DNA of 64,000 bases from Candidatus Poribacteria bacterium (lineage in GTDB: Bacteria; Poribacteria; WGA-4E; PCPOR2b). A program made the position numbers and the translations under genes. Below the pieces are notes generated by a model. The model made no database searches. It worked only from the letters and a program-made list of their open reading frames with translations, and was not told the DNA's origin. Shown piece by piece: positions 35,226 through 59,196 of the stretch. The stretch spans positions 2,720,001 through 2,784,000 of the forward strand of contig OZ242351.1 in assembly GCA_965208675.1 (NCBI GenBank), in the 5' to 3' direction. Numbering within the stretch: the stretch's first letter is position 1; every line of letters begins with the position of its first letter.

Positions 35226-36710
35226 TCAGTATATTACCCTTTCCTCCCTAAATAATTCGCCCATCATTATATTACCCTTCCCATCATAAATTCGCCACTC
35301 CCCATCCACTTTTCGCATTTTAAGAACGAATCCAGTGTTCCTGGGGCTATCCGACGTTGGCGCTTCTAATCGGAAATGAAATTCATCGCCGACATATTCA
35401 CTACTCACAATCTCTATCTGACTATAACCCTCCCGCATCTTCGACTGTCCTTCCGGAGTTTGAATTGCATCCAGTCCCTTCAGTATAGACTGAATCACAG
35501 ATTCTCTCGTCTTTTCTACTAACGCTTCTGGCACCCCTTCTGGAAAATTATCTTCAATTGCATTTAAGGTTTCATTTACAAATTCTTCTGGAAACTCCCC
35601 TCCGAGGAAACGTAAACTAGTTTCAATATGATCTCTGTAAGCTCCTGTCACAAAGGGGAGAGTTTCCTCTAAATCCACATTCTTAAGTGCTTCCACATAA
35701 GCGTTCATCACCTCTTCGGCGGATAAGATTGTGCCTTCTGATGCAACGGATGAATCGGTTTCGCCTGATTCGGAATCCTGATTAGATGCCCCGTCCGTTG
35801 CTAGTTGCGACGCCTGCGTTTCCGATTGTTCGTCGGCACCTTCTAGATGATCGAAGAAGTCCTCAATTTGCAGCATCTCTTCTGCGGAGATTTGCGGCTT
35901 ATTTTCGGGTAAAGGTGCGCTGACCGCGCCTTTACGAGCGGTGTCCGTTTGAGCGACCGAGGTTTCAGACTCAGTTGGCGTCGAAGCTACAATCTCAACC
36001 GATGGAGACGAATCTTCTTTCGACGATATGAACTGGCGCGTTCCGATGAAGGCGAGTACAATGATGGCTACCGCCCCGGCGGTGATTTTGGGTACTGTTC
36101 CAACTTTCATGACCGTTAATCCTCCTGAGTAGATTTGTTTGAGTGTGGGCATCGGAGAAACAAACACACCAGTAAGCAGATGACCCAATCGTTTGGCGAG
36201 TTTCTGCTTGGCGCGCGAGAGCCGAAACGAAATCGCCTTGTATGACAACCCATGCGTCCGAATCAGTTCGTCGTAGCCTGCGCCTTCAAGATAGTACGAG
36301 CGAGCGATTTCCCTATCTTTTTGCGGCAACGTTTCAATCGCGCGGCGAATCAGTTCCCTCTGTTCGCGGCGTATCAACTGTTCGTCGGGTGCGTCCGGGG
36401 TTAGGAGTGTGTGTGCGCTCGCTTCATCAATGGAAACAGTATTGACACGCTGTTTTCGCAACCAATCTCGTGCACTGTTTCGGGCAATCTCTGCCAGCCA
36501 GTATTTGAATTTTTCCCGATCCTCATACTGCACCAAGCCACGGTAGGCGTTGAGAAAGGTGTCTTGCACAATCTCTTCGGCATCGTTCGGATTGTTTACA
36601 AATCCGATTACAACCGCATAAACAAAGGCGTAATGCACCCGCATTAACTCCGTGAATGCACCTTCGTCCCCCGCTTGAACGCGGTAAATCAGATCTTTAG
36701 TGTTAGCCAC
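35226..36710 (-). CDS. ECF sigma factor with TM anchor and extracytoplasmic NTF2-like C-terminal domain (array copy 1)
   Basis: sigma2 DAEEIVQDTF…WLAEIARN; sigma4 LPQKDRE…SYKAISFRLSRAK; TM AGAVAIIVLAFIG; VGDEFHFRL…KMRK..G.WRIY. Confidence 0.93.
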   Translation of the reverse strand: MANTKDLIYRVQAGDEGAFTELMRVHYAFVYAVVIGFVNNPNDAEEIVQDTFLNAYRGLVQYEDREKFKYWLAEIARNSARDWLRKQRVNTVSIDEASAHTLLTPDAPDEQLIRREQRELIRRAIETLPQKDREIARSYYLEGAGYDELIRTHGLSYKAISFRLSRAKQKLAKRLGHLLTGVFVSPMPTLKQIYSGGLTVMKVGTVPKITAGAVAIIVLAFIGTRQFISSKEDSSPSVEIVASTPTESETSVAQTDTARKGAVSAPLPENKPQISAEEMLQIEDFFDHLEGADEQSETQASQLATDGASNQDSESGETDSSVASEGTILSAEEVMNAYVEALKNVDLEETLPFVTGAYRDHIETSLRFLGGEFPEEFVNETLNAIEDNFPEGVPEALVEKTRESVIQSILKGLDAIQTPEGQSKMREGYSQIEIVSSEYVGDEFHFRLEAPTSDSPRNTGFVLKMRKVDGEWRIYDGKGNIMMGELFREERVIY

Positions 36711-36746
36711 TGTTCTTCATTCCTCCTTATACCCCTTAATCAAACA

Positions 36747-36774
36747 TAACGACGTTCTGCGATTTTTTCTAGCA
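36747..36774 (-). promoter_or_regulatory. Putative ECF autopromoter GCTAGAA-N15-CGTT
   Basis: TAGAA-N15-YGTY conserved with exact spacing upstream of all five paralogs. Confidence 0.7.
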
Positions 36775-36789
36775 CTTTTTTTGAAGATG

Positions 36790-36900
36790 TAACTGTCTGA
36801 ATCAGGATTTACCGGATTAAAGGATTCCCAGGATATCAGATTAGTCGCGGGTTGAAAATAAAAAAGGCGAATGGGTTGTACCATTCGCCACGTGAAGTCT
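36790..36900. repeat. Array spacer repeat (TGTCTGAATCAGGATTTACCGGATTAAAGGATT… plus hairpin), copy A
   Basis: Similar copies at about 38470, 41453, 43061, 47886, 51348 (split) and 56061. Confidence 0.92.
36856..36889 (-). terminator. Intrinsic terminator GGCGAATGG-loop-CCATTCGCC-T-tract
   Basis: 9-bp GC-rich stem followed by TTTTTTATTTT on minus strand; repeated in each spacer. Confidence 0.85.
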
Positions 36901-36927
36901 TTGGGAATAGAGTTGGGAGTTTGTTGA

Positions 36928-38397
36928 TTATTCCCTTGCATAAATTATCCACACTCCATCAACATTCCGCATCTTAACGAGGCGCATTATGCTTTCTGGT
37001 GGCTTTGGAAACCCTGGAGGAAGCTCTCCCAATCCCGGTAGTTTTGGCATCGGCACGCTCAATCGGAAGTGAAATTCATCACCGACATATTCGCTCCTCA
37101 CAATCTCCATCTCCCCATACATTTCCTGTGCCATTTGCCGTATCTTCGCCTGCACTTTTGAATTCTGGTTAATCTCCAACATCATTTGCTGCAGACTATC
37201 CATCTGTTTTTCTGACATCGCTTCTTTTTCTTTCGACATCTCGTCGGAAATACGATCTGCTACGTCTTCTGAAAACCCATCACTGAAGATGTGCAAAGTA
37301 GTTTCAATGTGATTTCTGGCGGTCCCATCTACGTACGGGAGCAATGCCTCAAAGTCAAAAGTCCTATATGCATCGAGATAAGTATCCATCAACTCTTCGG
37401 CGGCAAAACTAGCGCTTTCGGCTTCAAAAGATGAATCAGTGACATTGCCTTTTTGAAAATCTTGATTGGTTGTCTCGTGCGTTGCTAGTTGTGAGATAGC
37501 GGCCTCCGATTGCGCGTCTGACTCATCAAGGTGAGCGAAAAAGTTTTCGATTTGCTGCATCTCCTCTGCAGAGATTTGCGGTTTGTCTTCAGGCACAGAC
37601 GCGACGACTGCGCTTTTACGAGCGGCGTCCGTTTGAGCGACCGAGGTTTCAGGCTCAGTTGGCGTTGAAGCAACAATCTCTTCCGATGGCGACGAATCTT
37701 CTTTCGACGATAGGAACTGGCGCGTTCCGATGAAGGCGAGTACAATGATGGCTACGGCCCCGGCGGTGATTTTGGGTACTGTTCCAACTTTCATGACCGT
37801 TAATCCTCCTGAATAGATTTGTTTGAGTGTGGTTATCGGAGAAACGAATACACCAGAAAGCAGATGACCCAACCGCTTGGCGAGTTTCTGTTTGGCGCGT
37901 GAGAGTCGAAACGAAATTGCCTTGTATGACAACCCGTGCGTCCGAATCAGTTCGTCGTAGCTTGCGCCTTCAAGATAGTACGAACGCGCGATGTCCCTAT
38001 CTTTTTGCGGCAAGGTTTCCATCGCGCGGCGAATCAGTTCTCTCTGTTCGCGGCGTATCAACTCTTCGTCAGGTGAATCCGCGGTTTGAAGCGTACCTTC
38101 GCTCACCTCGTTGATGGATACGGCGTCGATTCGTTGTTGTTCTCGCAACCAGTTTAAGGCTCGATTTCGCGCAATTTTTGCGAGCCAGCCTTTGAATCTT
38201 TTCGTATCCTCAAGTTGTGGCAAACCGCGGTAAGCGTTAAGGAAGATTTCTTGGACAACTTCCTCGGCGTCGTTGGGATTGTTTACGATTCCGATTACAA
38301 TCGCATAAACGAAGGCATAATACGCCTGCATTAACTCAGTGAACGCACCTTCGTCCCATGTTTGGGCGCGAGAAATGAGGGCGTTGTCGTTATCCAC
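36928..38397 (-). CDS. ECF sigma factor-TM-NTF2-like fusion (array copy 2)
   Basis: Same architecture as copy 1; GTG start, SD GGAGG. Confidence 0.93.
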   Translation of the reverse strand: MDNDNALISRAQTWDEGAFTELMQAYYAFVYAIVIGIVNNPNDAEEVVQEIFLNAYRGLPQLEDTKRFKGWLAKIARNRALNWLREQQRIDAVSINEVSEGTLQTADSPDEELIRREQRELIRRAMETLPQKDRDIARSYYLEGASYDELIRTHGLSYKAISFRLSRAKQKLAKRLGHLLSGVFVSPITTLKQIYSGGLTVMKVGTVPKITAGAVAIIVLAFIGTRQFLSSKEDSSPSEEIVASTPTEPETSVAQTDAARKSAVVASVPEDKPQISAEEMQQIENFFAHLDESDAQSEAAISQLATHETTNQDFQKGNVTDSSFEAESASFAAEELMDTYLDAYRTFDFEALLPYVDGTARNHIETTLHIFSDGFSEDVADRISDEMSKEKEAMSEKQMDSLQQMMLEINQNSKVQAKIRQMAQEMYGEMEIVRSEYVGDEFHFRLSVPMPKLPGLGELPPGFPKPPESIMRLVKMRNVDGVWIIYARE

Positions 38398-38427
38398 AGT
38401 TTTTCGTTCCTCCGTTGCATTATATTA

Positions 38428-38590
38428 AGACACTGTTCTGCGATTTTTTCTAGCACTTTTTTGTGATGTAACTGTCTGACTCAGGATTTACCGGATTAAA
38501 GGATTCTCAGGATATCAGATTTTTCGCGGGCAGAAAATAAAAAAAGGCGAATGGGTTGAACCATTCGCCTTGTGAAATCTTGGGGAATAC
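38428..38590. repeat. Array spacer copy B (promoter GCTAGAA-N15-TGTC, repeat, terminator)
   Basis: Near-identical to copy A. Confidence 0.9.
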
Positions 38591-38618
38591 GGTTGTGGGT
38601 TTGTTAAGAGTTCCGCTT

Positions 38619-41360
38619 TTAATACAAATAATTAACTTCGTAAATTTGCCATGCACCGTTCTCTTTTCGCATCTTAACAGACGTACCCGGCATCTCTAGG
38701 TGCTCGGGCATCTCCGGCAGCTCTATCCCCTGTAATTCGGGCATCTCCGATATGTCCGGTATCTCTATTTTCGGCATGGCTATTTTCAATTGGAAGTGGA
38801 ATTCATCGTCGACATATTTACTGGTCACAATCTCAACCTGACTGAACATTGATCGCACCATCGGATTCTGCATCGTATCGTTTAACATCTGAATCATACC
38901 GTCCGCCATTTCTTCTGATAACCCAATGTCATTATAATATATATCAACAAGCTCATCCGGAAGCTCACCGTTAAACATGCCTATAAGACCCGTTACCACT
39001 GGTCGGGCAGTGCCTGTCACATACGGCAGCATCGTCTCAAGTTCAAGCTTTCTATACGCCTCTATATAGGCATTCATCAACTCTTCGGCGGATGCATTCG
39101 CGTCGGTTGTGCTGGACTCGGTTTCAGATTCAGACGGTAGTTGGGAGGTGTCCACTTCCGGTTCTTCGATTTGACCGAGGGAGTCCTTGCCAACGATGAC
39201 GGTGGCGCGCTTGTTTCGAGGGAATACACTCGCCGCCAGGTGCTGCATGTCTGCATCGGTAACGCGCTGGATGGCATCACGCAATTCGTTGCCATCCAGT
39301 TTCAGTTGATACCGACGACCGGTGCTGAAAGCTAAACCGTAAAGGTTTTGCGCCCACATGGCATCCGGCACCTCAACTGTGCCCAACATTGCCATTGAGT
39401 TAAGCGTTCGCTGTTTGTCCTCCGGTGTAAGTTTTGTCGCCAACGCCGTGTTTAGGCGTTCGTCGAGTTGAATCAGTGCAATATGGTCGTCTGTGTCAGA
39501 TTGTAGGTCGGTTTGGAGCACAAGTGTGGTATCATCCTCCAGCGGTGTGAAGTACACACGCGGTGTTTTACCCGGCTGAAAGACGAACTGTGCGCTTGCC
39601 CACAAACGCGAGACAACTATCAGGAACGGCGCGTACTCCTTACTCCCGGGTCGGGGTGCAGCATATCCAATCGCTGCGACGCCGGTCGTATCGTCGTTCA
39701 CAGGTTCTGCAGTAAGCAACCGCAGCCCGCCGGTCAATGCTATAGACTTGCGCGGTTTAATAGGGGGCGACACGCTGGGCGAAATGTGACCGAAGTTTTG
39801 GTGAATCAACTGCCGCGCTTCGGCAACGTCAAACCCGCCTGCGATGGCAAGAATGGCGTTGTTCGGTTTGTAGTAATTCTGCCAAAATTGCTGGAGCTCG
39901 TCGAGCGTCATAGTCTCGATGTGCTCGGGCGCGACGCCGACGCGTCCGCCTTCGAGAATCGTGTGCAAGTGAGCTCGAACACTGTTTAAACCGACCAGCG
40001 ACGGGACGCCACTATACATGTTCCTCAACTCCGCCATCACGCGAGGCACCTCACGATTCAGATCGGCTTGGGTAATGCGTAGGTCATTCATGCGGGTAGC
40101 CGCGTCCTTCAATTCGGACGCGAATTGTTTTGCTTCGACGACCCCGGCAAAAACGGTGTAGTCAAATCCCGTGTGCGAGTTCCAGCCTGCAACATAGCGT
40201 GCCTGAAGCTGTATGGCGCCGCGCGCTGGGGAGTCGCCGGCTGCAGCGGTATAATACAGGTGTTCAAGCAGGTGTGCTCTGCCGGACTTTCCGATCGGGT
40301 CGTGGTCTCCGCCCAAATTGAACAGCACTACAACCGCCACTTGGCTTGACGTGGGAACAGGGCGTAGAATGACTGTCAGCCCATTTTCCAGTTTGTACGG
40401 CGCCCGTATCTCGGTCTTTGAAATTTTAACCTCGGCGACGGAGTTGATCGGACTCGGTTGCTCGGGCGAATTACCGACAATCCCCGTGCCGTGTTCACCA
40501 AGAACCGTTGGCGGTTTGGCCCCCTCGGCCACGAGTTCCACCGGAATCTCTGCAAACATTGTCATCTGGATTTCGCTGGGAAGCGGTGAACTGGCCAGAT
40601 CGCCGGGCGTAGCAACTGGTCGGAGAAATTGATTGAAAAGCATAAAGGTAAGTACTATCCCGACGGTCGCTGAACCGATGAATGGAAGCAACGGCTTCGT
40701 TGAAATCGGTTGCACTTTGGTTGACTTAATGGCTTCGACGATTCGGAACGTAAAGCCTGACTGTAATTTTTTCTCTGCAAATGTGGTGTCTATCATCGAA
40801 ATCAACTCCTCCTTCAGTTTGGTTCTGGCTCGCATCAACCGTTGGTTCACGGTGTTGACAGAAGTCCCCAAAAACCGCGCAATCTCCTTGCTACTCAGAC
40901 CGCCAAGATAGTAGAGCGTCAACGTCTGTCGATAGATTTCCGGCAATTGATCAATCGCCTCACGGATGGATTCGGCTGCGGCTTCGCTTCGATAGGCATC
41001 AATTGACGGTGTGTCCAAGAGCGCCGTGTCTTGGTCCTCGATGTAGTCTCCATCTGGACGGCGTAATCGGGATGTGAGAAAATTTGTGCACGAATTAACC
41101 GTAATTGAGAACAGCCACGCTAAGAAGTTATCCCGTCGCTTGAGGGTAGGAAGTTTCTGATAGGCTTTAATAAAGACTTCTTGGGTGATGTCCTCAGCAT
41201 CGTGGAAGTTTCTAAGCTTTGTGTAAGCTAGGGCATAGACGCTCGACTTGTATTTATCAACGAGCAAGCCAAACGCCGCCGATTCTCCATTAAGGCATTT
41301 TCCGATGATGTATCCATCTTCTGTGTACACGGTTCTATTCCTCTCACCAAATGGCTTCAT
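38619..41360 (-). CDS. ECF sigma factor-TM-M16 (insulinase-family) peptidase-NTF2-like fusion
   Basis: sigma2 DAEDITQEVF, sigma4 LPEIYR…EIARFLG; TM; YKLENGL…AHLLEH inverted Zn motif; YYKPNNAIL; shared C-terminal domain. Confidence 0.9.
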   Translation of the reverse strand: MKPFGERNRTVYTEDGYIIGKCLNGESAAFGLLVDKYKSSVYALAYTKLRNFHDAEDITQEVFIKAYQKLPTLKRRDNFLAWLFSITVNSCTNFLTSRLRRPDGDYIEDQDTALLDTPSIDAYRSEAAAESIREAIDQLPEIYRQTLTLYYLGGLSSKEIARFLGTSVNTVNQRLMRARTKLKEELISMIDTTFAEKKLQSGFTFRIVEAIKSTKVQPISTKPLLPFIGSATVGIVLTFMLFNQFLRPVATPGDLASSPLPSEIQMTMFAEIPVELVAEGAKPPTVLGEHGTGIVGNSPEQPSPINSVAEVKISKTEIRAPYKLENGLTVILRPVPTSSQVAVVVLFNLGGDHDPIGKSGRAHLLEHLYYTAAAGDSPARGAIQLQARYVAGWNSHTGFDYTVFAGVVEAKQFASELKDAATRMNDLRITQADLNREVPRVMAELRNMYSGVPSLVGLNSVRAHLHTILEGGRVGVAPEHIETMTLDELQQFWQNYYKPNNAILAIAGGFDVAEARQLIHQNFGHISPSVSPPIKPRKSIALTGGLRLLTAEPVNDDTTGVAAIGYAAPRPGSKEYAPFLIVVSRLWASAQFVFQPGKTPRVYFTPLEDDTTLVLQTDLQSDTDDHIALIQLDERLNTALATKLTPEDKQRTLNSMAMLGTVEVPDAMWAQNLYGLAFSTGRRYQLKLDGNELRDAIQRVTDADMQHLAASVFPRNKRATVIVGKDSLGQIEEPEVDTSQLPSESETESSTTDANASAEELMNAYIEAYRKLELETMLPYVTGTARPVVTGLIGMFNGELPDELVDIYYNDIGLSEEMADGMIQMLNDTMQNPMVRSMFSQVEIVTSKYVDDEFHFQLKIAMPKIEIPDISEMPELQGIELPEMPEHLEMPGTSVKMRKENGAWQIYEVNYLY

Positions 41361-41367
41361 TTAGTAT

Positions 41368-41394
41368 GACAATGCAAAAGACCGAAATATTACA
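41368..41394 (-). promoter_or_regulatory. Putative ECF autopromoter TGTAAT-N17-TGTC, 7 nt before the ATG (leaderless)
   Basis: Same motif and spacing at 47800-47826; no SD before either ATG. Confidence 0.6.
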
Positions 41395-41452
41395 CGGGCA
41401 GACAATTTTTCGGTTGAAAGAGAGGATAAGTGACAGGGTGTATCTGTTACCG

Positions 41453-41580
41453 AACTGTCTGACTCAGGATTTACCGGATTAAAGGATTCTCAGGATAACA
41501 AATTTTTCGCGGGTTGAAAATAAAAAAGGCGAATGGGTTGAACCATCCGCCTTGCGAAGTCTTGTGGGATTGAGTTGCCG
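41453..41580. repeat. Array spacer copy C (repeat + terminator)
   Basis: Matches copy A. Confidence 0.9.
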
Positions 41581-41597
41581 GTTGCTTTAACGTCTGA

Positions 41598-42986
41598 CTA
41601 TTCATAAATTCGCCATGCCCCGTCCTCCTTTCGCATCTTAACAACGTTTTCTACGCTCTCCGGCAACTCTGGCATCTCGTCCAGTAGTTCCGCCCGTAGT
41701 TCTTCCGGCGTATCCCGCATCAGCGGTTCTATCAGTGCTCCAAATTGTGGTAAAGTTGTTCTCACTCGAAAATGGAATTCATCGCCAACATATTCGCTGC
41801 TTACAACCTCGGACCCGCCAAGCACCGGGCCGAACGTCAACTCAATCATCTGCTTGAGCTCTGGATTTTCCTCCATAAAATCTTTCATGTCCGGCAAAAC
41901 ACTTTCCAGCTCTTCTTTAGCAGCCCCTGTCAATAACGGGAGCATTGCCTAAAAGTCTAAATTCTTGGATGCCTCGATATAGGCGTTCATTACCTCTTCA
42001 GCGGATTGTTCCGTGTCTTCAACAACCGCATCGGTACTGATTGAGACATGCTGATCGAAGTCTTGCTGATGTGCGGCTTCTGCGTGTTGTGTTTTGTCCG
42101 ATTGTGCGTCCGCTTCATCGAGTTGAGCGAAGAAGTTTTCAATTTGCTGCATCTCCTCTGCAGAGATTTGTGGTTTGTCTTCAGGCACAGGCGCGACGAC
42201 TGCGCTTTTACGAGCGGCGTCCGTTTGAGCGGCGGAGGTTTCAGCCTCAGTTGGCGTTGAAGCAACAATCTCTACCGTTGGAGTCGAATCTTCTTTCGAC
42301 GAAATGAACTGGCGTGTCCCGATGAAGGCGAGTGCGATGATGGCAACTGCCCCGGCGGTGATTTTGGGAACGGTTCCAACTTTCATGACCGTTAATCCTC
42401 CTGAGTAGATTTGTTTGAGTGTCAACGCGGGAAAGGCGAATACACCAGTGAGTAGATGGCTCAACCGCTTGGCGAGTTTCTGCTTGGCACGCGAAAGCCG
42501 AAACGAAATCGCCTTGTATGACAACCCATGCGTCCGAATCAGTTCGTCGTAGCTGGCGCCTTCAAGAAAGTAGGAGTGAGCGATGTCCCTATCTTTTTGC
42601 GGCAGCGATTCCATGGCACGTCGAATTAGTTCTCTCTGCTCGTCGCGAATCAAGCTTTCGTCAGCAGACTCTGACAACTGAACTGCCCGCTCATCCACTT
42701 CATCAATAGATACGGTGTCCAACCGCTGTTCGCGTAACCAGTTTAAGGCTCGATTTCGCGCAATTTTTGCCAGCCAACTCTTGAGTTTGGTCTGCTCCTC
42801 ATACTGCGCTAAGGCGCAGTAGGCGTTGAGAAAGGTGTCTTGCACAATCTCTTCGGCGTCGTTGGGATTGTTCACGATTCCGATTACAACCGCATAAACG
42901 AAGGCATAATGCGCCCGCATCAATTCAGTGAATGCACCTTCGTCTCCCGCTTGGGCGCGAGAAATGAGCGTATCGTCGTTCCTCAC
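41598..42986 (-). pseudogene. ECF sigma factor-TM-NTF2-like fusion (copy 3) interrupted by an in-frame TAG at 41949-41951
   Basis: LDF*AMLP where paralogs have DFEA; both halves are in the same frame. Confidence 0.85.
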
Positions 42987-43189: not shown

Positions 43190-45073
43190 TCATCGAGAGA
43201 CATCCCATAAAAGCACTGTTCCGTCGTAACTTCCACTCCCCAGCGTGCTCCCATCCGGGTTGAATGCCAGGGTACTAATGTACGACGTATGCCCCTTCAA
43301 GCTTCGTCGCTGCGTCTCCGTCTTGGCATCCCACAGAAGGATGATTGCGTCGGCATCCCCACTCGCAAGCGTTCGTCCATTCGGGCTAAACTCTACCGCG
43401 GTAACATCTGCCGAGTGACCGTTTAGCGTTCTACGGTGCGTCCCCGTGGCAGCATTCCAAAGCTGGACGGAATGGTCGCCGCTCCCACTGGCTATCTTGT
43501 TTCCGTCTGAGCTAAAGGCGACGCTCGTGATGTCCGCGGTATGACCCTTTAGTGTTCGGCGGTGCGCGCCCGTGGCGACATCCCAAAGTCGGATGGTTGC
43601 GTCGGTGCACCCGCTTGCCAACGTCGCGCCGTCTGGGCTGAACGCAAGCGTCGAGCGAGCCGGCCTGTAAACGCGAGGAACGGTGTCCGACGCCTCCCAG
43701 TGCAGGTTATGCAGTTGCGCACCCGTCTCGGCATTCCACAGGCGGATAGTTGTTTCGCCGTTCCAACTTGCTACCGCTGAGCCATCCGGGCTGAACGCTA
43801 TGCTGTGGTCTACGCCGTCATCGTTTCGTAATGTCCGCAGATATGCACCTGTCTTTACATTCCAAAGGCAGACGGAATGATGCCCATTTCCACCTGCTAA
43901 CGTTAGCCCATCCGGGCTAAATGCTATGCTATGGGCCTCTGATAAATACCGGTCCAGTGACCGCTTGTGCTCGCCTGTCACAGCATCCCATAAACGAATG
44001 GGATTCAACCGGCTCGCACTTGCCAACGCCGCACCGTTCGGGTTGAACGCTATGCTAATGACGGGTTTTATATGTCCATCCAGCGTCCCTAAGTGCGTAT
44101 CCGTCACCGGATTCCACAGGCGAATTGTCCCGTCGTCACTCCCGCTTACCAACGTTGCACTATCCGGGCTGAAGACGACATGAGTGACCCAACCCGTATG
44201 TCCTTCTAGCTCCCGCAGCCGTGTTCCTGCCGCGACATTCCACAATCCGATGGTCGTGCCAGGCCCACCACTTGCCAAGATACTGCCATCCGGGCTGAAC
44301 GCGACGCTCGAGACCATAGGTATGCGTTCTTCCAGTTGCCAAAGGTGTACTCCGGTCTTAGCGTTCCAAAGTCGGATGCTATCGCCCCAACCGCCGCTTG
44401 CCAGTACGCTGCCATCTGGGCTGAACGCGACCGCGGTGGCATACTCCGTGTGACCTTCCAGAGTTCGTACAGGTACGCCTGTCTCCACATCCCACAGACG
44501 AATAGTCTTGTCATAACTTGCGCCTGCCAACGTCGAGAAATCCGGGCTGAACGCGGCGGTACCAACGGAATATGTATCTCCCTGCGGAGTACGCAGTTCC
44601 AGTGACCGCGTATGTGTTTTAGTCTCGACATCCCACAGATGAACGGTCGTCTGCGACACACCTGCTAGTGTGCTGCCATCCGGGCTGAAAACCACGTTCA
44701 AGGTGCCCTCTGATTTTGCCTCCAGTGTATGTAGGTGTAAACCCGTCACGGCATCCCACAGACGAACGGTATTGTCCGAACTTCCACTCGCTAGCATGCT
44801 GCCATCCGGGCTGAACACTACGCTCGCCACAATTCCCGAATGTCCGGTGAGCAGAGCTATCTCTTGATGGGTCGTTGTATCGTAGAGCCAGATACCGATT
44901 CCGCTGCCGACTGCAAGCCGAGCGCCATCGGGGGAATACTGTATTTGACCTATCGCCCCCTTTCCGATCCGCGCTACAACCCCTTCAGGCAAACCCCACT
45001 GCGAGGCATCTTGCGAAAAGGCGTTGCACAAGGTCAAGGAGAACAGTATATGCAAGGATAAAACTGTTTTCAT
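43190..45073 (-). CDS. Secreted WD40-repeat protein (about 14 blades)
   Basis: Signal peptide, 'WGLPEG..ARIGKG' leader, GH…FSPDG..LASGS.D.TIRLWD repeats. Confidence 0.95.
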   Translation of the reverse strand: MKTVLSLHILFSLTLCNAFSQDASQWGLPEGVVARIGKGAIGQIQYSPDGARLAVGSGIGIWLYDTTTHQEIALLTGHSGIVASVVFSPDGSMLASGSSDNTVRLWDAVTGLHLHTLEAKSEGTLNVVFSPDGSTLAGVSQTTVHLWDVETKTHTRSLELRTPQGDTYSVGTAAFSPDFSTLAGASYDKTIRLWDVETGVPVRTLEGHTEYATAVAFSPDGSVLASGGWGDSIRLWNAKTGVHLWQLEERIPMVSSVAFSPDGSILASGGPGTTIGLWNVAAGTRLRELEGHTGWVTHVVFSPDSATLVSGSDDGTIRLWNPVTDTHLGTLDGHIKPVISIAFNPNGAALASASRLNPIRLWDAVTGEHKRSLDRYLSEAHSIAFSPDGLTLAGGNGHHSVCLWNVKTGAYLRTLRNDDGVDHSIAFSPDGSAVASWNGETTIRLWNAETGAQLHNLHWEASDTVPRVYRPARSTLAFSPDGATLASGCTDATIRLWDVATGAHRRTLKGHTADITSVAFSSDGNKIASGSGDHSVQLWNAATGTHRRTLNGHSADVTAVEFSPNGRTLASGDADAIILLWDAKTETQRRSLKGHTSYISTLAFNPDGSTLGSGSYDGTVLLWDVSR

Positions 45074-47449: not shown

Positions 47450-47792
47450 TGCAATTGACTCCTCCTTCAGTTTGGTTCTGGCTCGCATCAGCCAGTCGTT
47501 GACGGTATTGACGGAACGCTCAAACACTGCGCAATCTCTTTAGTAAATAGCCCCCTAGTATTTAACCCTTTGCTACGGGTAGAGAGATTCTGATACACTT
47601 AAAAAACATTACGTGCGCGGCATCCTCATCATTAATTAAGTTACTCAGCTTTGCGTAAGCGAGAGCGTAGACGCTCGACTTGTATTTATCAAAGAGCAAG
47701 GCAAATGCCGCCGATTCTCTATTAAGGCATTTTCCGATGATGTATCCATCTTCCGTGTACACGCTGCTGCTCCTCTCACTGAACGACTTCAT
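47450..47792 (-). pseudogene. Decayed ECF sigma moiety of the second ECF-M16 gene
   Basis: MKSFSERSSSVYTEDGYIIGKCL… then frameshifts/stops; about 220 nt shorter than the intact paralog. Confidence 0.85.
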
Positions 47793-47885: not shown

Positions 47886-47990
47886 ACTGTCTGAATCCGT
47901 ATTTACTGGAATAAAGGATTCTTAGGATAACAGATTTGTCGCGGGTTGGAAATAAAAAAGGCGAATGGGTTGAACCATTCGCCTGGTGTA
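47886..47990. repeat. Array spacer copy E
   Basis: Matches copy A. Confidence 0.88.
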
Positions 47991-48058
47991 TCGGGGCAAG
48001 GAAACTCCTCATACCAATGTCTACAGTACTCATCCGACAGTTAATCGGTACTATGGAA

Positions 48059-49047: not shown

Positions 49048-49551
49048 CTAGTCTAATGTTTCACTGTCATAAATTCGCCACACGCCATTCTCTTTTCGCA
49101 TCTTGATAATCTAATTCGAGGCGGTCACTTTTGAGATTGCCATTCCTGATATCTCCGGCATCTCGGGCGGCGGTCCGCCCATTTTGAAGTGGAATTCATC
49201 CCCAACATATTTGCTACTCACAACTCCTAACCGACTAAAATACTCAAGTACAGTTTGTTCAACCATCTGACGCATCTCAGCCGGCATTTCCGGTACAATT
49301 TCCGGATCCATGAGCGGGAAGCCCATTACCGCAGCCTTTTCAAACTCCTCTTTGGCAGTCCCTGTCATTAGCGAACCCATCGCCTCAAAGTCCATATTCT
49401 TAAACGCCTTCACGAAAGTATTCATCACATCTTCAGCAGATTGAGACGTGCTCCCTGACGGCATTTCCACATCTTTTTTCTCCGATACACTCAATGAACA
49501 GCCGTTAACAAACAAAGGCAAACAGACAAGGCTCACAATCAAAAATCGCAT
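49048..49551 (-). pseudogene. Stand-alone NTF2-like array domain as a lipoprotein, in-frame TAG at 49111-49113
   Basis: SD AAGGAG, lipobox VNGC; SAEDVMN…VGDEFHF; frame continues *IIKMRKENGVWRIYDSETLD*. Confidence 0.8.
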
Positions 49552-49768
49552 TTTCTCTCCTTTGTGGTAGTAGCGATTGGTAGACAAACCGTGTATGGCA
49601 TTAGCGACAGGTTGCTTATCGCGGGAAGCTAGGAATGATTTGAGCATGCATCCACGTACATGTAATGACATTGACTACAACAAATTTTTGACCGCCACTC
49701 AGAAAAATGAAGTTGTCGTGAGGAGGCAAGAGTTCAGCCACAAGCCGATTATTCACCATCGGCTGCGT

Positions 49769-51271
49769 TCAATCGGATACTGATTCGCGCGAGTCCAATA
49801 TCTCACTCTCATAAACCCGCCACGCGCCATTCCCTTTCCGCATCTTGAAAAGTGTATTTGGCACAATGACGTCTGAGATTTCTATCCATGTAATCTCCGA
49901 CTTATCCGGCGCTGGTCCTCCCAATACAAAGTGAAATTCATCGCCGACATATTCGTTACGCACCACATCTAGCTGACTGAGAGATTTCAGCCACACGTTT
50001 CGCATCTTCCGCTCAAATGCCCCACTTCTTATCTCTTGTTCAATACTCCGCATCTGCTGTTCAGCCATCTGACGCATCTCAACCGGCAAATCCGACAAAT
50101 CTTTTAGCCTATCTAGCAGTTTAGCTAGTTCAGCCGGGTCTAGGATTGGGAAGTTGCCTGTCGCCGCCATGGCCCACTCTCCTTTGATGCGTCCTGTGGA
50201 TAGAGAGTGTACCGCTTCAAAGTCAAGATTCTGAAACCCTTTCACATAAGCGTTCATCACTTCTTCTGCGGATAAGTCCGTGTCTTCTGCTACAACAGGT
50301 GAATCGGTGTCGCCTAATTCGGAATCCTGATTAGATGCTTCATCTGTTGCTAGTTGTGGCGAATCTGCCTCCGATTGTGCGTCTGCACCCTCAAGTTGAG
50401 CGAAGAAGTCCTCAATCTGCCCCATCTCCTCCGCTGAAATTTGCGGCTTACCCTCACGCGAGGGTGCGGCGAACGTACCTTTACGCGTGGCGTCCGTTTG
50501 TGAGGCTAGGTTTGCAGACTCAGTTGATGTTACAATCTCGACCGTAGGGGAGTTATCCTCTTTCGACGATATGAACTGGCGTGTCCCGATGAAAGCGAGT
50601 ACAATGATGGCTACCGCACCGGCAGTGATTTTGGCAACTGTTCCAACTTTCATGACCGTTAATCCTCCTGAATAGAAATTTTTGAGTGAGGTTATCGGAG
50701 AAACGAACACACCGCTGAGCAGATGCTCCAACCGTTTGGCAAGTTTCTGTTTGGCGCGCGAAAGTCGAACCGAAATCGCTTTGTAAGACAGTCCGTGCGT
50801 ACTCATTAGTTCGTCATAGTCCGCACCGTCAAGGTAATAAGAGTGAACAATCTCCCGCTCTTTTGGAGAAAGCGTTCCAAGTGCGCGTCGAATCAGCTCC
50901 CTCTGTTCACTGAGAATCAACTGTTCGTCTGGCAATTCTTGCGTCTTGACGGTGGATTTACCGATTTCATCAAACAGGCTTAATTCGTCTATAGGAACAG
51001 TATCAATCCGTTGTTTTCTCAGCCAACTTCGTGCGCGATTTCGAGCAATCTCTGCGAGCCAAGTTTTGAATTTTGACCTCTCCTCATACTGCGCCAAACC
51101 ACGGTAGACGTTGAGAAAGGTGTCCTGGACAATCTCTTCGGCGTCTTGGGGGTTGTTCACCATATCGATGACGATTGCATAAACGAAAGAGTGATATGCC
51201 CGTATCAGATCGACAAATGCACCTTCATCCCCAGCTCGCGCGCGACAAATGAGTGCGCTGTCATTATCCAC
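49769..51271 (-). CDS. ECF sigma factor-TM-NTF2-like fusion (copy 4)
   Basis: Same architecture; upstream promoter AGTAGAA-N15-CGTT. Confidence 0.93.
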   Translation of the reverse strand: MDNDSALICRARAGDEGAFVDLIRAYHSFVYAIVIDMVNNPQDAEEIVQDTFLNVYRGLAQYEERSKFKTWLAEIARNRARSWLRKQRIDTVPIDELSLFDEIGKSTVKTQELPDEQLILSEQRELIRRALGTLSPKEREIVHSYYLDGADYDELMSTHGLSYKAISVRLSRAKQKLAKRLEHLLSGVFVSPITSLKNFYSGGLTVMKVGTVAKITAGAVAIIVLAFIGTRQFISSKEDNSPTVEIVTSTESANLASQTDATRKGTFAAPSREGKPQISAEEMGQIEDFFAQLEGADAQSEADSPQLATDEASNQDSELGDTDSPVVAEDTDLSAEEVMNAYVKGFQNLDFEAVHSLSTGRIKGEWAMAATGNFPILDPAELAKLLDRLKDLSDLPVEMRQMAEQQMRSIEQEIRSGAFERKMRNVWLKSLSQLDVVRNEYVGDEFHFVLGGPAPDKSEITWIEISDVIVPNTLFKMRKGNGAWRVYESEILDSRESVSD

Positions 51272-51629: not shown

Positions 51630-52439
51630 TTAACTTTTCATCCGATAGATGCGCCATTCCCCGTCTACTTTTCACATGCTAACGACTAGTCCAAAATTGC
51701 TGTATGCATCGGCCATCGGCACGGTCAATCGGAATTGGAATTCATCGCCGACATATTCACTACCCACGATTGTCGTCTGACGGAAAATTCGACGCCATTT
51801 CGCTAGGTTTTCCGGAGATCGAATTGAATCCATTGCTTTGTAAGCCGACTCAACTGCCTCGTCTATTTCAGTTTCGGACATACCATCGTCGATTGAAGTC
51901 AGGTAGTCATTCAGCATTTTTTCCGGCATCACCCCACCGAGAACACTCAAAAGGTTTTCAATAGGTTTCCTGGCATTCTCAGTAGTGAATGGGAGAACCG
52001 TCTCCAAATCGAAATCCCTAAACGCATCCACGAACTTATTCATCACTTGTTCAGCGGGATGCTCTAGATTTGCACCCGAGTCTTCGGAGAAGTGTTCAGC
52101 GCTATCCTGTATTATCTCTGCGTTTAGTGATGATTTCGGTTCATCCAACTCTGGTTGTTCAGCCATGTCTTCGAGTTGGGCGAAAAAGTCCTCAATTTGC
52201 TGCAGCTCTGCGGCAGAGATTCGCAGCGTGTCTTCTGGCAAAGCGCTATCGATTTCGGCATTTCGCGCCGTACGCGTTTGAGCGGCCGAATCTGAAAACT
52301 CCTTTGGCGATGATATTACAATCTCAACCTCTCGATCCGAATCCTCTTCAGCCGAAATGAACCAGAGTGTTATAATCGTGCCGACTAAAATGAGGGCTAC
52401 TGCACCGGCTACGGTTTTGTGAAGCGTTCCAAATTTCAT
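51630..52439 (-). pseudogene. Sigma-less TM-NTF2-like protein (anti-sigma-like module alone), in-frame TGA at 51672-51674
   Basis: Starts MKFGTLHKTVAGAVAL, homologous to internal MKVGTVPKITAGAVAI; frame continues M*KVDGEWRIY. Confidence 0.8.
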
Positions 52440-52492
52440 AATTTCTCCTGTATAGCGTTTTCGCGTGTGGGTATCGGAAACAGGAACCGTTT

Positions 52493-56170: not shown

Positions 56171-56194
56171 TTGGACTAGGAATTCAGGTTAGTG

Positions 56195-56320: not shown

Positions 56321-56658
56321 GGCTCTGTAGATATTTCACCTAACTAGACGACCGAATTAACGAAACCGAGAAACCCAAGATGGCATTCGGCAAGGCACTC
56401 AGACCAAGAAAAGATTCGCCGATAGTGCTTGGTTATGTTTTTAAACTATCCATTAGAGTCTTTCATGACAAAGACAGGCATTATAGCATTTAAGTGACGG
56501 CTTTTGGCACGCGGGAAACAACCGGCATTGCACCCCAGTAGGTTAAACTATACGAATGAATCATGTTCATTGGTGAAACCCTGAACTAACGACCCAACAC
56601 AGATGATTCGTGGCGCTGTCCCGCGCTTAGCGTGTAGCGTAATGGATTGCTCAAACCA

Positions 56659-57042
56659 TCAGCCGTGATACGGTATTGTGAGATTCTGATTCAGTTGTTT
56701 TCGATTGTTCTCTGATTTCCAAGAGGGAGAAGGTGCCGACAAAGAATTAAAATTATTAGTTGCTGAATTCCTCTCGCTAACCTCAGCTTTGTACGATTTT
56801 ATTAGATTGACTGTTGCCCACACAAACAACGCGATCGCAACCACCACAAACACAAACATAACCGGTCTTAGTTTTTCACTCCATGGTGTCCGTTTTCCCC
56901 AAGCCGCCGCTGCCGCGGAAAAGAGAAGCAACCCCGTCATGAATAACGTCTCTGTAGTAACACCCGTAACCGTGATTTGAATTAGTATAATAATCAATCC
57001 TATTACGAGGGTAACCAAGGCAATTCGTTTTTTGCGATTCAT
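56659..57042 (-). CDS. Small three-TM membrane protein
   Basis: Three hydrophobic helices after MNRKKRIAL. Confidence 0.6.
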   Translation of the reverse strand: MNRKKRIALVTLVIGLIIILIQITVTGVTTETLFMTGLLLFSAAAAAWGKRTPWSEKLRPVMFVFVVVAIALFVWATVNLIKSYKAEVSERNSATNNFNSLSAPSPSWKSENNRKQLNQNLTIPYHG

Positions 57043-57762
57043 AAAAACCCTTCCATAAATGAGCATATAGTCATGGCACAATTATAACGGCAGTTTCCAT
57101 TGTTATGCCGTTTAGCAATCGGTGTTTTTTCTTAGCCTCTCGAATTTGCTGTGAGATGGAACATTCCTCCACTCGTTGAAACACCTCATAATGATCATGT
57201 TTAACGAACTCGTAACCTTTTTGCAAGTCACGCTGCAGACGCACGCGCATTCATCATTCGAATACAAGATGTCCTCGTTCTTCAAACATATCGGCGAGGT
57301 GAATCCCTATAGAAACTGAAAATTTGCCATCTTCAGTTGTGTGTATAGCCATGAATTTATCAATGTCGCTACCTTCAACTGACGCAAGAGTGCCTAATCA
57401 TAGGGCAATCCGGAGATTCTCCTTATGTATCTCAAGGGCATTTAGGTGAGTTTTACGTGTTTGCCTGAAAGATTCACAAGCATGATCGATTCTCCTTATC
57501 AAGTGTACGTGATGCTGCTAGACATTGGTTTCTTTTACAGAAAGCTGTGTCACTATGGCATTCGGCGAGTCAAACTGAGCAAAGAACCAGTTTGTCACAT
57601 CTTCGACCGTTTTACACAAGCGTAACAATTCCGCCTCAGTGTCGTAACAATACACGGATTTTTACGGACGTAATCTGTGGTGTAAGCAACGGAACTGGAG
57701 CAAGGTGTTCCTTGATGAGAACTCATGGGGCGGGTTGCGAGTTATTGTGAAACTTCTCTCTA

Positions 57763-59196
57763 CTATTCATAAATCTGCCATGTACCGTTCTCTTTTCGCA
57801 TCTTATGAAGAAAGTCGGGCATTTCCGGCATCTCAGGCATCTGAAATGTCTCGGGAATCTCTGAAATGTCCTGCCCAAACCTTCCTAGCATCTCTGACAT
57901 TTCCGGCAACTGGCTCCTTAATCGAAAGTGGAATTCCTCGCCGACAAACTCACTGCTCACAATCTCTGCTTGACTAAACATCTGTTTAAGGATTGGTTGC
58001 ATCATTCCTTGTATCATCTGAAGTGTCTCATCTGCCTCGTCTTCTGGCAAACCACTATCATAAAAAATTTCCTCAATCTCTTGTGGTAACCCTCCTAAAG
58101 GCAAACTACTTTCAAACTCTTCTTTGGCTGCACCTGTCAGAAATGAGAGCATCGCGCCAGCGTCAAAATTCCGGAACGCCTTCAGATAAGCGTTCATTAC
58201 ATCTTCAGCGGATTGAGTGGTGTCTTCTGGCGTCGCCCATGAGTCGGTGGCATCGCCCGCATCGGCGTTCTTATCTAAGGCTTCGTCCGTTACTTGTTGC
58301 GACGTATCCGTCGCCGAATGCGAGTCTGCCTCGTCAAGTTGAGCGAAGAAGTCCTCAATCTGCTGCATCTCTTCTGCGGAGATTCGCGGTTTATCTTCAC
58401 GCGGGGGTGCGGTGACTGCATTACTTCGTATGGCATCCGTTTGGATGGCCGGTTGCGCGGACTCTGTTGAAGTCACAATCTCAACCGACGAGGACGTATC
58501 CTCTTCTGACGAAATGAACTGGCGCGTCCCGATGTAGGCTAGTATGACGACGGCTACTACCCCCGCGGTGATTTTGGGTATTGTTCCAACTTTCATGACC
58601 GTTAATCCTCCTGAATAGATTTTTTTGAGTGTCGACGCGGGAATAGCGAACACCCCAGTGAGCAGATGACCCAACCGCTTGGAGAGTTTCTGTTTGGCAC
58701 GCGAAAGCCGTACCGAAACCGCTTTGTACGACAACCCATGCGTCCTCGTCAACTCGTCGTAGCTTGCGCCTTCAATATAGTACGACCGGGCAATCTCCCG
58801 CTCACCTGGCGAAAGCGTCTCTATCGCACGGCGAATGAGTTCGCTCTGTTCACGGTGTATCAACTCGTCGTCCGGTGCATCCGAGGGCGATAGTGTGTGC
58901 TCCCCCACCTCATTGATGGACACGGTATCAATCCGCTGTTCTCGCTGCCAGTTGAGCGCACGATTTCGCGCAATTTTTGCCAGCCAGTTTTTAAACTTTT
59001 TCGCATCCTCGAGGTCTGGCAGGCCGCGATAAGCGTTGAGAAAAGAATCTTGCACGACCTCTTCGGCGTCTTGGGGATTTTTCACGATTCCGATAACAAT
59101 CGCATAGACATAACCATAATGCACCCGCAATAGATCGACGAATGCACCTTCGTCCCCGGATTGTGCGCGAGCAATTGTGTCCTCGTTAATAATCAC
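57763..59196 (-). CDS. ECF sigma factor-TM-NTF2-like fusion (copy 5)
   Basis: Same architecture; upstream promoter AGTAGAA-N15-TGTC. Confidence 0.93.
   Translation of the reverse strand: MIINEDTIARAQSGDEGAFVDLLRVHYGYVYAIVIGIVKNPQDAEEVVQDSFLNAYRGLPDLEDAKKFKNWLAKIARNRALNWQREQRIDTVSINEVGEHTLSPSDAPDDELIHREQSELIRRAIETLSPGEREIARSYYIEGASYDELTRTHGLSYKAVSVRLSRAKQKLSKRLGHLLTGVFAIPASTLKKIYSGGLTVMKVGTIPKITAGVVAVVILAYIGTRQFISSEEDTSSSVEIVTSTESAQPAIQTDAIRSNAVTAPPREDKPRISAEEMQQIEDFFAQLDEADSHSATDTSQQVTDEALDKNADAGDATDSWATPEDTTQSAEDVMNAYLKAFRNFDAGAMLSFLTGAAKEEFESSLPLGGLPQEIEEIFYDSGLPEDEADETLQMIQGMMQPILKQMFSQAEIVSSEFVGEEFHFRLRSQLPEMSEMLGRFGQDISEIPETFQMPEMPEMPDFLHKMRKENGTWQIYE

Follow-up and report, generated by a model that had tools for sequence, protein, structure and literature searches.

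ECF sigma factors joined to further domains within one polypeptide are represented by several described systems. In IutY of Pseudomonas putida (ECF243), the passages cited here place an ECF sigma factor, a transmembrane (TM) segment and a periplasmic part in one ORF, with the sigma domain being freed by Prc and RseP proteolysis, and present ECF48, ECF52 and ECF53 as predicted sigma/anti-sigma fusions (PMC8999054, PMC5411451); the review passage on ECF57 ascribes WD40-like C-terminal extensions to that group (PMC8999054). Internal translation starts in signalling genes are exemplified by ArcB-C of E. coli, a C-terminal proteoform made from an SD-like sequence and start at a domain boundary, which is conserved among species and, by the cited account, was shown by ribosome profiling (a Ribo-RET study), western blot and start-site mutation (bioRxiv 10.1101/520783). 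Both internal starts and ECF fusions are known kinds; the Poribacteria junction site described below, in which the genome of a sponge symbiont carries sigma-fusion genes with a Shine-Dalgarno (SD) sequence and start codon at the join, is a new variant.

The window analyzed here is a 64,000-nucleotide stretch of a Candidatus Poribacteria genome (contig OZ242351.1; window coordinates are genome coordinates minus 2,720,000), and its relevant genes all lie on the minus strand. Five paralogs, p1 (35226–36710; 494 aa, primary start GTG at 36710), p2 (36928–38397; 489 aa), p3 (41598–42986), p4 (49769–51271; 500 aa) and p5 (57763–59196; 477 aa), are ORFs with Sigma70_r2 and Sigma70_r4_2. As resolved by ORF translation and Pfam for p1, the architecture comprises an ECF sigma factor (regions 2 and 4), a TM helix, an acidic/Ser-Pro linker and a periplasmic C-terminal domain (CTD). 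The p3 CTD is broken by one in-frame TAG (41951–41949), beyond which the frame is open and at which the database homologue P0017 has Glu. p1 matched PF04542 with 57 bits (cut-off 24) and PF08281 with 28.6 bits (cut-off 25.7); Pfam returned sigma regions 2 and 4 and no other sigma regions, as in ECF (group 4) factors, and sigma, TM and extracytoplasmic parts share one open frame (477–500 aa, or 913 aa in the peptidase fusion discussed below). A terminator-like hairpin with a T run separates p2 from p1 (36866–36889, with a second copy at 38544–38571), and the paralogs look to be transcribed as separate units. The window genes resemble IutY and ECF48/52/53, as these are presented in the cited passages, in uniting sigma, TM and periplasmic parts in one ORF, and also in the presence of an RseP-like gene: a site-2 protease (Peptidase_M50, 604-aa frame, approximately 16482–18176, genome 2736482–2738176) is a candidate for freeing a membrane-tethered sigma. 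They differ in that IutY-type fusions are described with a FecR-like or zinc finger anti-sigma domain before the TM segment, whereas in the window family Pfam found no anti-sigma domain, or any other match beyond the sigma regions, between sigma region 4 and the TM helix; in p1 about 28 residues separate the end of the region 4 match (residue 171) from that helix. The second difference is the conserved SD and ATG at the junction, the passages on IutY-type fusions making no mention of an internal start (PMC8999054, PMC5411451).

This junction is marked in all five paralogs by an identical 32-mer, TCAGGAGGATTAACGGTCATGAAAGTTGGAAC, for which an exact scan of the window returned five copies with no mismatches, all on the minus strand (36097–36128, 37781–37812, 42373–42404, 50640–50671 and 58583–58614), against an expectation of none (mean 0.00 and maximum 0 in 100 shuffles), bearing out the first-pass annotation. 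It encodes S-G-G-L-T-V-M-K-V-G in frame and amounts to an in-frame AGGAGG-N10-ATG (equivalently AGGAGGA-N9-ATG) about 25 residues past sigma region 4. The p1 site spans 36108–36126, with AGGAGGA at 36126–36120, 9 nt of spacer and the in-frame ATG at 36110–36108; the corresponding SD and ATG lie at 37810–37804 and 37794–37792 in p2, 42402–42396 and 42386–42384 in p3, 50669–50663 and 50653–50651 in p4, and 58612–58606 and 58596–58594 in p5. In an alignment of the five paralogs the longest invariant run is this 32-nt one and the second longest is 10 nt; the identity extends to synonymous sites, as had been proposed, with invariant amino acids having an identical codon in 9 of 10 cases inside the run as against 51 of 158 elsewhere.

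Part of this identity is of local origin. The exact 32-nt match is restricted to the host genome, species of the same genus already differing in the spacer Leu, Thr and Val codons, and gene conversion, evident in the mosaic blocks of p1–p3, inflates it. The mosaic paralogs raise the further idea, also put forward in the first-pass annotation, that the 32-mer is a crossover point at which sigma and sensor modules are swapped; C-terminal domains do differ among paralogs with a common sigma, TM and linker (L006–L008), and the paralogs' CTD recurs in the unrelated M16 fusions. We regard such a hotspot as scarcely credible: breakpoint analysis of p1–p3 puts the block boundaries at about nt 720–780 and about 900, leaving the 32-mer (nt 583–614) within a uniform p1=p2 block (301–720), and domains are swapped at the linker/CTD border, around residue 320–350, not at residue 200.

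An equivalent site occurs in two genes of a different build. M16a (38619–41360; 913 aa) combines an ECF sigma factor, a TM helix, an M16 peptidase and the paralogs' CTD; its PF04542 and PF08281 matches are stronger than those of p1, PF07638 is matched too, and the peptidase region passes the Pfam cut-offs for the M16 N- and C-terminal domains, with 25.1 bits on PF00675 (against 22.3) and 43.5 bits on PF05193 (against 23). Its junction has AAGGAGGAG at 40814–40806, followed after 9 nt by an ATG at 40796–40794. M16b (45314–47790) couples a degraded sigma to a TM-M16-CTD frame, with an ATG at 47449–47447 behind AAGGAGGAG at 47467–47459, so that the AAGGAGGAG-N9-ATG reported earlier for both ECF-M16 genes was recovered. 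M16b scores 49.2 bits on PF05193 and 21.5 bits, just below the cut-off, on PF00675, and the HxxEH zinc motif of M16 peptidases is present as HLLEH in both translations. The M16b sigma remnant (about 47790–47530) has an internal deletion and stops, while 711 codons downstream are intact; the ortholog in genome G002 is equally sigma-degraded (dS 0.123, dN 0.045, ratio 0.37), and the SD and ATG are identical in G000 and G002, other upstream start candidates not being conserved between the two species. A stand-alone TM-linker-CTD gene (51672–52439; 255 aa) begins, as first noted, at the Met homologous to the internal one, with its own SD (AGGAG at 52449–52445, N5 ahead of the start); about 20 codons of the former sigma tail are recognisable upstream in a frame closed by stops, and its G002 ortholog is 82% identical, shares the start and gives a dN/dS of 0.50. 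On this comparison, the internal SD and ATG appear to be the sole conserved start of both M16b and the stand-alone gene, each of which is intact in two species. The CTD is found once more in a lipoprotein-like protein (49111–49671; 186 aa), where translation and alignment place it after a signal/lipobox-like N-terminus. Compared with DUF4878/NTF2-like families, the shared CTD gave as its best match PF12870 in one of eight members (E = 0.01; 16.6 bits, below the cut-off of 24.1), and DUF3828 and MecA_N fell below threshold in one member each.

To look beyond the window, we collected 120 distinct homologous junctions of this family (family A) from 24 Candidatus Poribacteria genomes; in 112 of the 120 homologs the frame stays open over at least 185 codons before the junction and 70 after it. 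The start codon is ATG in 116, GTG in three and ATA in one, and GGAGG is present at 87 of the 120. Codon –5 is GGA in 88, GGC in 4, GGG in 2, GGT in 1, AGA in 12, GAA in 10 and another codon in 3. AGA and GAA are plain transition products of GGA, and were counted against a selected start. When the first Gly is retained it is thus GGA in 88 of 95 cases, while the second is free (GGT 74, GGA 30, GGG 7, GGC 5), as are the codons for the spacer Leu, Thr and Val. Across the family, constraint does not extend to the 32-mer as a whole and seems confined to the ATG, the codon of the first Gly and a small number of further sites.

These codon patterns bear on the reading that SGGLTVMKVGT is a juxtamembrane peptide motif, its identity stemming from gene conversion and its likeness to an SD being incidental. 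The peptide is conserved, including the Lys and Gly after the internal Met, p1–p3 bear the mosaic blocks expected of conversion among tandem paralogs, and the spacer is unconstrained outside the host genome. We nevertheless consider it improbable, as it leaves unexplained why GGA is specific to the first Gly with the second free, why codon –5 tolerates Gly, Arg and Glu and yet stays purine-rich, and why an SD stands 5–11 nt from the Met in junction peptides as unrelated as KGGFL|M, ERRKT|M, KEExxx|M and KQEEP|M.

Mapped on a tree of 112 homologs, changes at the third position of the SD Gly number 7, as against 23–31 in each of seven other conserved Gly columns. Other single columns match or surpass this constraint for no evident reason: Val column 187, with 2 changes, and the Gly lying three codons past the ATG, with 5. 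In a sliding synonymous scan the junction does not stand out as unique: windows at columns 200–215 score 0.61–0.71 against a median of 0.98, but columns 49–54 and 2–4 are equally low. Further counter-evidence is that the SD is not recognisable in 18 of 94 scorable family A homologs and only weak in 11.

The pattern recurs in other ECF fusions. Of 29 fused ECF ORFs in the host genome, 27, spanning several unrelated junction types, have an in-frame ATG/GTG directly after sigma region 4, at codon 168–204, with AGGAG(G) 6–12 nt ahead of it; among control codons of the same ORFs, such a site occurs at 2 of 4,060 before the junction and 2 of 4,745 after it (4 in about 8,800). A whole-genome search for internal GGAGG-N5-10-ATG includes 13 ECF-fusion junctions among the 89 matches listed. 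Of the two among the 29 fused ORFs that depart from the pattern, 890720 lacks the Met, and 4160573 keeps it with a decayed SD, so fusions can exist without the internal site. Among relatives, the SD and ATG stand at the junction in 26 of 30 members of family D and 20 of 23 of family E, and in 10 of 14 of a phylum-wide sample that includes other classes; since paralogs and orthologs are not independent, these counts exceed the number of events, an example being an SD and ATG at codon 89, within the sigma domain, common to 8 family E orthologs. Family E (3224950, 3226723) is like ECF57 in fusing an ECF factor to a region that looks WD40-like by eye; its junction, AAAGGAGGAAGAxxATG, is a feature that the cited account of ECF57 does not describe (PMC8999054). 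The junction codon choice is contrary to genome habit: GGA makes up 23.7% of Gly codons in the genome and opens just 13% of its 7,809 Gly-Gly pairs, and AGG-AGR, which makes the family E SD, only 2.7% of 5,438 Arg-Arg pairs.

Unfused ECF operons of the host indicate where such a site might come from. There the anti-sigma gene begins between –11 and +45 nt relative to the sigma stop, and in some examples the SD falls within the sigma 3′ end or immediately past it, as would be expected of the ancestors of the fusions. The suggestion of a fusion scar of a sigma/anti-sigma operon stands as an account of origin. As a neutral relic, in which SD and ATG are leftovers of a former gene without initiation, kept because the fusions are young or the residues needed, the scar seems unlikely. 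It would accommodate the ancestral layout, the two fusions that lost the site and the 18 of 94 homologs with no recognisable SD, but sits poorly with 7 changes at the SD Gly against 23–31 per control column under heavy synonymous turnover, with retention of the feature across multiple unrelated types of junction and in further classes of the phylum, and with the use of codons otherwise avoided in the host genome. Selection on the SD core and start codon is supported by the synonymous site and the unrelated ECF-fusion families, as far as sequence comparison can tell.

The surroundings of the site are compatible with initiation. The host uses SD sequences: its 16S 3′ end carries CCTCC, and across 2,865 long ORFs GGAGG peaks 5–10 nt ahead of the first start (31, 57, 58, 43, 41 and 23 occurrences, as against 1–5 at ≥16 nt); the in-frame internal site, with a spacing of 10, falls on the upper shoulder of the genome's real starts. 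Folding was scanned over the 480 nt before and the 216 nt after the internal ATG, and the 40-nt windows centered 42 to 12 nt upstream of it are the least structured (–2.4 to –4.6 kcal/mol, one –6.9; most others about –5 to –9), at a GC of 0.36–0.46. On the other side, ribosomes translating the sigma part could block access to the site. Ribosomes in elongation might themselves be its target, the SD-like element causing a folding or targeting pause, or a +1 frameshift that releases free sigma. prfB and dnaX are known cases of frameshifting stimulated by an SD, and the 32-mer has TAA and TGA in its +1 frame. This seems very improbable to us: no slippery or hungry codon is conserved, the Leu, Thr and Val codons of the spacer vary, a pause would precede synthesis of the TM segment, no RNA structure was detected (z = +0.72), and neither a pause nor a frameshift requires a Met at fixed distance, yet ATG or GTG is kept in 116 and 3 of 120.

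We therefore favor, with fair though far from full confidence, a selected internal translation start that would yield a sigma-less partner protein beside the full-length fusion. The ancestors would have been sigma/partner operons in which the stop codon between the genes was lost, the ribosome-binding site and start codon of the downstream gene being retained by selection within the fused frame. Each fusion gene would then probably make two products. One would be the full-length membrane-tethered ECF sigma, presumably inactive at the membrane until regulated proteolysis frees it, as for IutY. The other would be the sigma-less partner, for which ribosomes are predicted to initiate at the internal AGGAGG-N10-ATG within intact fusion genes; for the window paralogs it would be a type-II membrane protein consisting of MKVGTVPK, one TM helix, the acidic linker and the periplasmic domain. 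A classical, direct-binding anti-sigma role for this short form, one of the functions first suggested, is unlikely in the main family because almost no cytoplasmic part is left, only about 8 residues (MKVGTVPK) preceding the TM helix, and no Pfam anti-sigma domain is present. We prefer to see in the short product a sigma-free pool of the sensor or partner, which may set stoichiometry or act as a decoy or co-assembly partner.

Such genes would share with ArcB-C, as described in the cited study, an SD and start placed precisely where domains of a signalling protein meet; they differ in that the Poribacteria site is known from sequence comparison, is class-wide among ECF fusions across the phylum, and has a visible origin as a former gene start. 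They are like ordinary ECF sigma/anti-sigma operons in having the SD in or just past the sigma 3′ end and the partner ATG a few nucleotides on, and unlike them in lacking a stop between the two parts, so that a covalent fusion would also be made. Tentatively, and with more doubt than for the internal start itself, the fusions of the phylum Poribacteria, and possibly extended ECFs generally, may be dual-output genes that yield a sigma-tethered sensor and a sigma-free sensor/anti-sigma copy, the ratio of start-site use setting the switch threshold. If true, such genes would amount to a sigma/anti-sigma operon condensed into one gene, a form outside the current classification of ECF 'extensions'.

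Comparative evidence suggests that ECF sigma factor fusion genes of this poribacterium and its relatives are selected to yield, besides the full fusion, a sigma-less partner protein from an internal start just after sigma region 4. The source genome (4.89 Mb, one contig) encodes on the minus strand, between 35.2 and 59.2 kb of the window, five paralogous ORFs of 477–500 aa (hereinafter p1–p5, e.g., p1 at 35226–36710), whose sigma part comprises sigma-70 region 2 and region 4, with no other domain recognized by Pfam. About 28 residues separate the end of the region 4 match from a single hydrophobic helix (KITAGAVAIIVLAFIGTRQF), which is followed by an acidic, Ser/Pro-rich linker of ~120 residues and a C-terminal domain of ~160 residues. 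The same domain closes two fusions of an ECF sigma factor, a TM helix and an M16 peptidase (M16a, 38619–41360; M16b, 45314–47527), a stand-alone TM protein (51672–52439), and a lipoprotein-like protein (49111–49671). Its Pfam matches are sub-threshold and hint at an NTF2-like fold (DUF4878, E = 0.01); a profile search of PDB sequences with it recovered nothing meaningful (top match, a designed repeat protein, E = 0.026), and a complex prediction for two copies, based on a 24-row alignment, scored 0.03 against a mark of 0.42, which counts neither for nor against self-association. The third ORF (p3, 41598–42986) is broken within this domain by a single TAG (41949–41951, minus strand), after which the frame is open to its normal end; a database homolog (P0017) has Glu at this position, and the TAG is probably a recent nonsense mutation. 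Amid the cluster also lies a gene for a secreted WD40-repeat protein of 627 aa (43190–45073, minus strand).

At the junction between the sigma part and its partner, all five paralogs carry the same 32-mer (five occurrences, zero mismatches, zero expected by chance), with internal ATGs at 36110, 37794, 42386, 50653, and 58596, as the first-pass annotation had placed them. It reads TCA GGA GGA TTA ACG GTC ATG AAA GTT GGA, that is, AGGAGG, 10 nt, ATG, and is the longest invariant run of the five-paralog alignment (32 columns, the next longest being 10); where the amino acid is invariant, the codons are identical at 9/10 positions inside it versus 51/158 elsewhere. The proposed analogous site of the two M16 fusions was likewise recovered, as AAGGAGGAG-N9-ATG, with ATGs at 40796 and 47449. 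Three further paralogs elsewhere in the genome keep AGGAGG-N10-ATG with a different Leu codon, and one of these also differs at the second Gly and the Val/Ile codons. Mosaic sequence sharing among the five window paralogs means that gene conversion adds to their identity, which weakens the case: along p1–p3 (window 35226–42986), p1 equals p2 over nt 301–720, p2 equals p3 over 721–900, and p1 equals p2 again over 901–1020, an alignment pattern that indicates conversion among the tandem copies. The breakpoint positions contradict the further suggestion that the 32-mer is itself a crossover point for swapping modules, and we regard a recombination hotspot as hardly credible.

The paralogs belong to a family (family A) present in 24 of 41 genomes (40 relatives plus the window's own) from five genera, often as tandem arrays; with 20 further regions added, we extracted 120 distinct junctions. 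In all, family A numbers more than 1,100 members. The junction Met codon is ATG in 116 of these, GTG in 3, and ATA in 1, and the first Gly position is GGA in 88, GGC in 4, GGG in 2, GGT in 1, AGA in 12, GAA in 10, and something else in 3. The spacer codons for Leu, Thr, and Val are variable, so that the exact 32-mer is not conserved family-wide, but GGAGG (kept at 87/120 junctions) and the start codon are. The first-pass annotation had held that free variation of the Gly codons would speak against its reading: the first Gly is largely fixed as GGA, whereas the second is free in its third base (GGT 74, GGA 30, GGG 7, GGC 5). On a tree of 112 junctions (eight with short flanks were left out), 7 changes map to the third base of the SD Gly codon, versus 23–31 at each of seven other conserved Gly columns. 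Genome-wide, GGA has a 23.7% share of Gly codons, and where two Gly codons adjoin, its share at the first is 13%; this rarity points to a general avoidance of GGAGG within genes. A pure protein motif homogenized by gene conversion would explain the 32-mer of the window paralogs; it leaves the contrast between the first and second Gly unaccounted for, as well as the recurrence of the site in other families, and is in our judgment quite improbable. On synonymous constraint the results are mixed: in a sliding scan, relative synonymous change is low at the junction (0.61–0.71, the median being 0.98), but two stretches of the sigma domain score just as low. Among the 112 homologs, two columns are constrained at least as tightly as the SD Gly, namely column 187 (Val GTT, 18 codons or 54 nt upstream of the internal ATG, window ~36164; 2 synonymous changes) and column 208 (Gly GGA, three codons or 9 nt after it, window ~36099; 5 synonymous changes). 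This weakens the case, as does the absence of a recognizable SD at the junction in 18 of 94 scorable family-A homologs.

The strongest evidence, as far as sequence comparison goes, is the recurrence of the site outside family A. The window's genome holds 29 ECF ORFs running far beyond sigma4, and 27 of them have AGGAG or AGGAGG 6–12 nt before an in-frame ATG (GTG once) at codon 168–204, directly after sigma4; the same scan of their remaining codons finds 2/4,060 before the junction and 2/4,745 after it. Of the two exceptions, one is without a junction Met; in the other the Met persists and the SD is lost through a change of Glu-Glu to Glu-Asp. The junction peptides are mutually unrelated (SGGLTV/MK, K-E-E-x-x-x/M, KGGFL/MQ, ERRKT/MT, and KRRISQ/MQ, the slash preceding the internal start), with the SD spelled by Gly-Gly, Glu-Glu, or Arg-Arg; the last type uses AGG-AGR, which accounts for 2.7% of Arg-Arg pairs genome-wide. 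Across long ORFs, GGAGG stands 5–10 nt before 89 of 19,349 internal in-frame ATGs, and 13 of the 89 are ECF junctions. Among relatives the site occurs in 26/30 fused ORFs of family D (with GTG replacing ATG in one member) and 20/23 of family E, and a phylum-wide sample, other classes included, has it in 10/14 further fused ORFs. These counts include non-independent kin, such as the family-E orthologs of genus g5 (L147–L155), eight of which share a second in-frame GGAGG-N5-ATG at codon 89, in the sigma2/sigma4 linker. In the phylum, ECF matches reach at least 44 per genome, many of the listed frames being 600–1300 aa long. Elsewhere in the window's genome (G000:C1:3224950-3227235), two tandem ECF genes are fused directly, with no TM helix, to a region judged WD40-like by eye, and carry AAAGGAGGAAGAxxATG at the junction.

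An SD-like element within a coding region could also act as a pause or frameshift element, and the +1 frame of the junction does hold TAA and TGA; with no conserved slippery site, and with the Met at a fixed distance left unexplained, this seems very improbable. Internal initiation, in turn, is compatible with the ribosome-binding features of the genome. The 16S rRNA ends in the canonical CCTCC, and a roughly assembled set of 2,865 long ORFs shows GGAGG enriched 5–10 nt ahead of the first start (31, 57, 58, 43, 41, and 23 occurrences), with only 1–5 occurrences at spacings of 16 nt or more; the internal-site spacing of 10 lies on the shoulder of this distribution, well inside its range. Averaged over the 112 homologs, a folding scan reaching 480 nt upstream and 216 nt downstream of the internal ATG shows the 40-nt windows centered 42 to 12 nt before it to be the least structured and most AT-rich, one at −30 (−6.9 kcal/mol) being the exception among these weakly folded windows. 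The p1 junction RNA folds no better than shuffles (z = +0.72), and a scan with the sigma-70 consensus, which may not be that of this phylum, found no internal promoter on the minus strand upstream of the p1 and p2 internal ATGs. The four sequencing runs listed for 35000–41500 of the window, all of one study, are not recorded as RNA.

Two natural sigma-less derivatives bear on the function of the site. In M16b, stops and an internal deletion have destroyed the sigma domain, of which a remnant can still be read at ~47790–47530 (minus strand); G002, a second species, has an ortholog that shares this state, with even more advanced decay upstream. Both copies retain an intact frame of 711 codons after the junction Met (dS 0.123, dN 0.045); the 21 nt holding the SD and ATG are identical, and no other upstream start candidate is common to the two species. 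Similarly, the stand-alone gene (51672–52439) begins, as had been noted, at the homologous Met, behind AGGAG-N5, and upstream of it ~20 codons of a former sigma tail are recognizable, closed by stops. Its G002 ortholog is 82% identical, with the same start and a dN/dS of 0.50; the window copy (end 51672–51674) is 13 residues shorter and without the conserved ...RKxDGxWRIY domain end. By their pattern of decay and maintenance, M16b and the stand-alone gene show that translation of a maintained gene can begin at the junction SD and ATG, and that the partner has a sigma-independent role. Another locus, L157, was considered as a natural split variant and rejected, being disrupted rather than a clean sigma-stop-partner arrangement. 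As to origin, the genome also has unfused ECF genes, and behind them come zinc-finger-type anti-sigma genes whose starts fall −11 to +45 nt relative to the sigma stop; in the displayed examples, the anti-sigma SD is located within the 3′ end of the sigma gene or immediately past it. The fusions look like this layout minus the stop codon. That the junction SD and ATG are nothing but a neutral scar of such a fusion is unlikely, as the synonymous pattern and the depth of conservation contradict it.

A shared terminator hairpin (GGCGAATGG...CCATTCGCC with a T run; minus strand, e.g., 36866–36889, 38544–38571, and ~47970–48005), followed by a conserved ~120-nt block, lies upstream of p1, p2, p3, and the decayed M16b. 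The pair looks like a duplicated regulatory cassette, and each paralog, with hairpin and block ahead of it, looks to be its own transcription unit. The primary start in the window's genus is a GTG 11 nt after GGAGG, AGAGG, or GAAGGG; among 94 scorable homologs of the wider family, 64 start with ATG and 30 with GTG. On the reading that both starts are used, initiation at the primary one would yield a membrane-tethered sigma factor, which, by analogy with the account of IutY in PMC8999054 and PMC5411451, may be inactive until proteolysis frees the sigma; an RseP-like gene is present at ~16.5–18.2 kb of the window. Initiation at the internal site would yield a sigma-less membrane protein. For p1, the expected masses of the two products are ~54 kDa (long form) and ~32 kDa (short form). 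The anti-sigma role first suggested for this short product is unlikely in the window family, where only 8 cytoplasmic residues would remain, too few for a classical sigma-binding anti-sigma factor. Rather, we favor a sigma-free sensor pool; it may be a co-assembly partner, or a decoy that diverts the activating protease or ligand. In other families, 27–37 cytoplasmic residues lie between the Met and the TM helix, and in family E a region WD40-like by eye directly follows the Met; in these families the free protein could have a true regulatory role.

Fused ECF/anti-sigma proteins such as IutY have been described (PMC8999054, PMC5411451), and in-frame internal starts are known, e.g., that of ArcB-C, which likewise lies at a domain boundary (bioRxiv 10.1101/520783). 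A full-text literature search, supplements aside, found no description of internal initiation in an ECF fusion, the sole match for 'internal translation' with ECF concerning mCherry; nor does the combination figure in the sections available of PMC7826278, PMC8999054, PMC5411451, or the 2026 proteoform review PMC13515050. In a sponge metaproteome paper, no more than 6 proteins were assigned to Poribacteria. The combination of an ECF fusion with an internal start thus appears to be new; both ingredients are known. At present, ECF sigma factors that carry a fused C-terminal extension are regarded as single-protein one-component regulators. If the proposed reading is true, models of their silencing and activation would have to accommodate a sigma-free second species, probably the more abundant one; genome annotation would be missing one protein per gene; and the fusions would be a readable record of sigma/partner operons becoming single genes.
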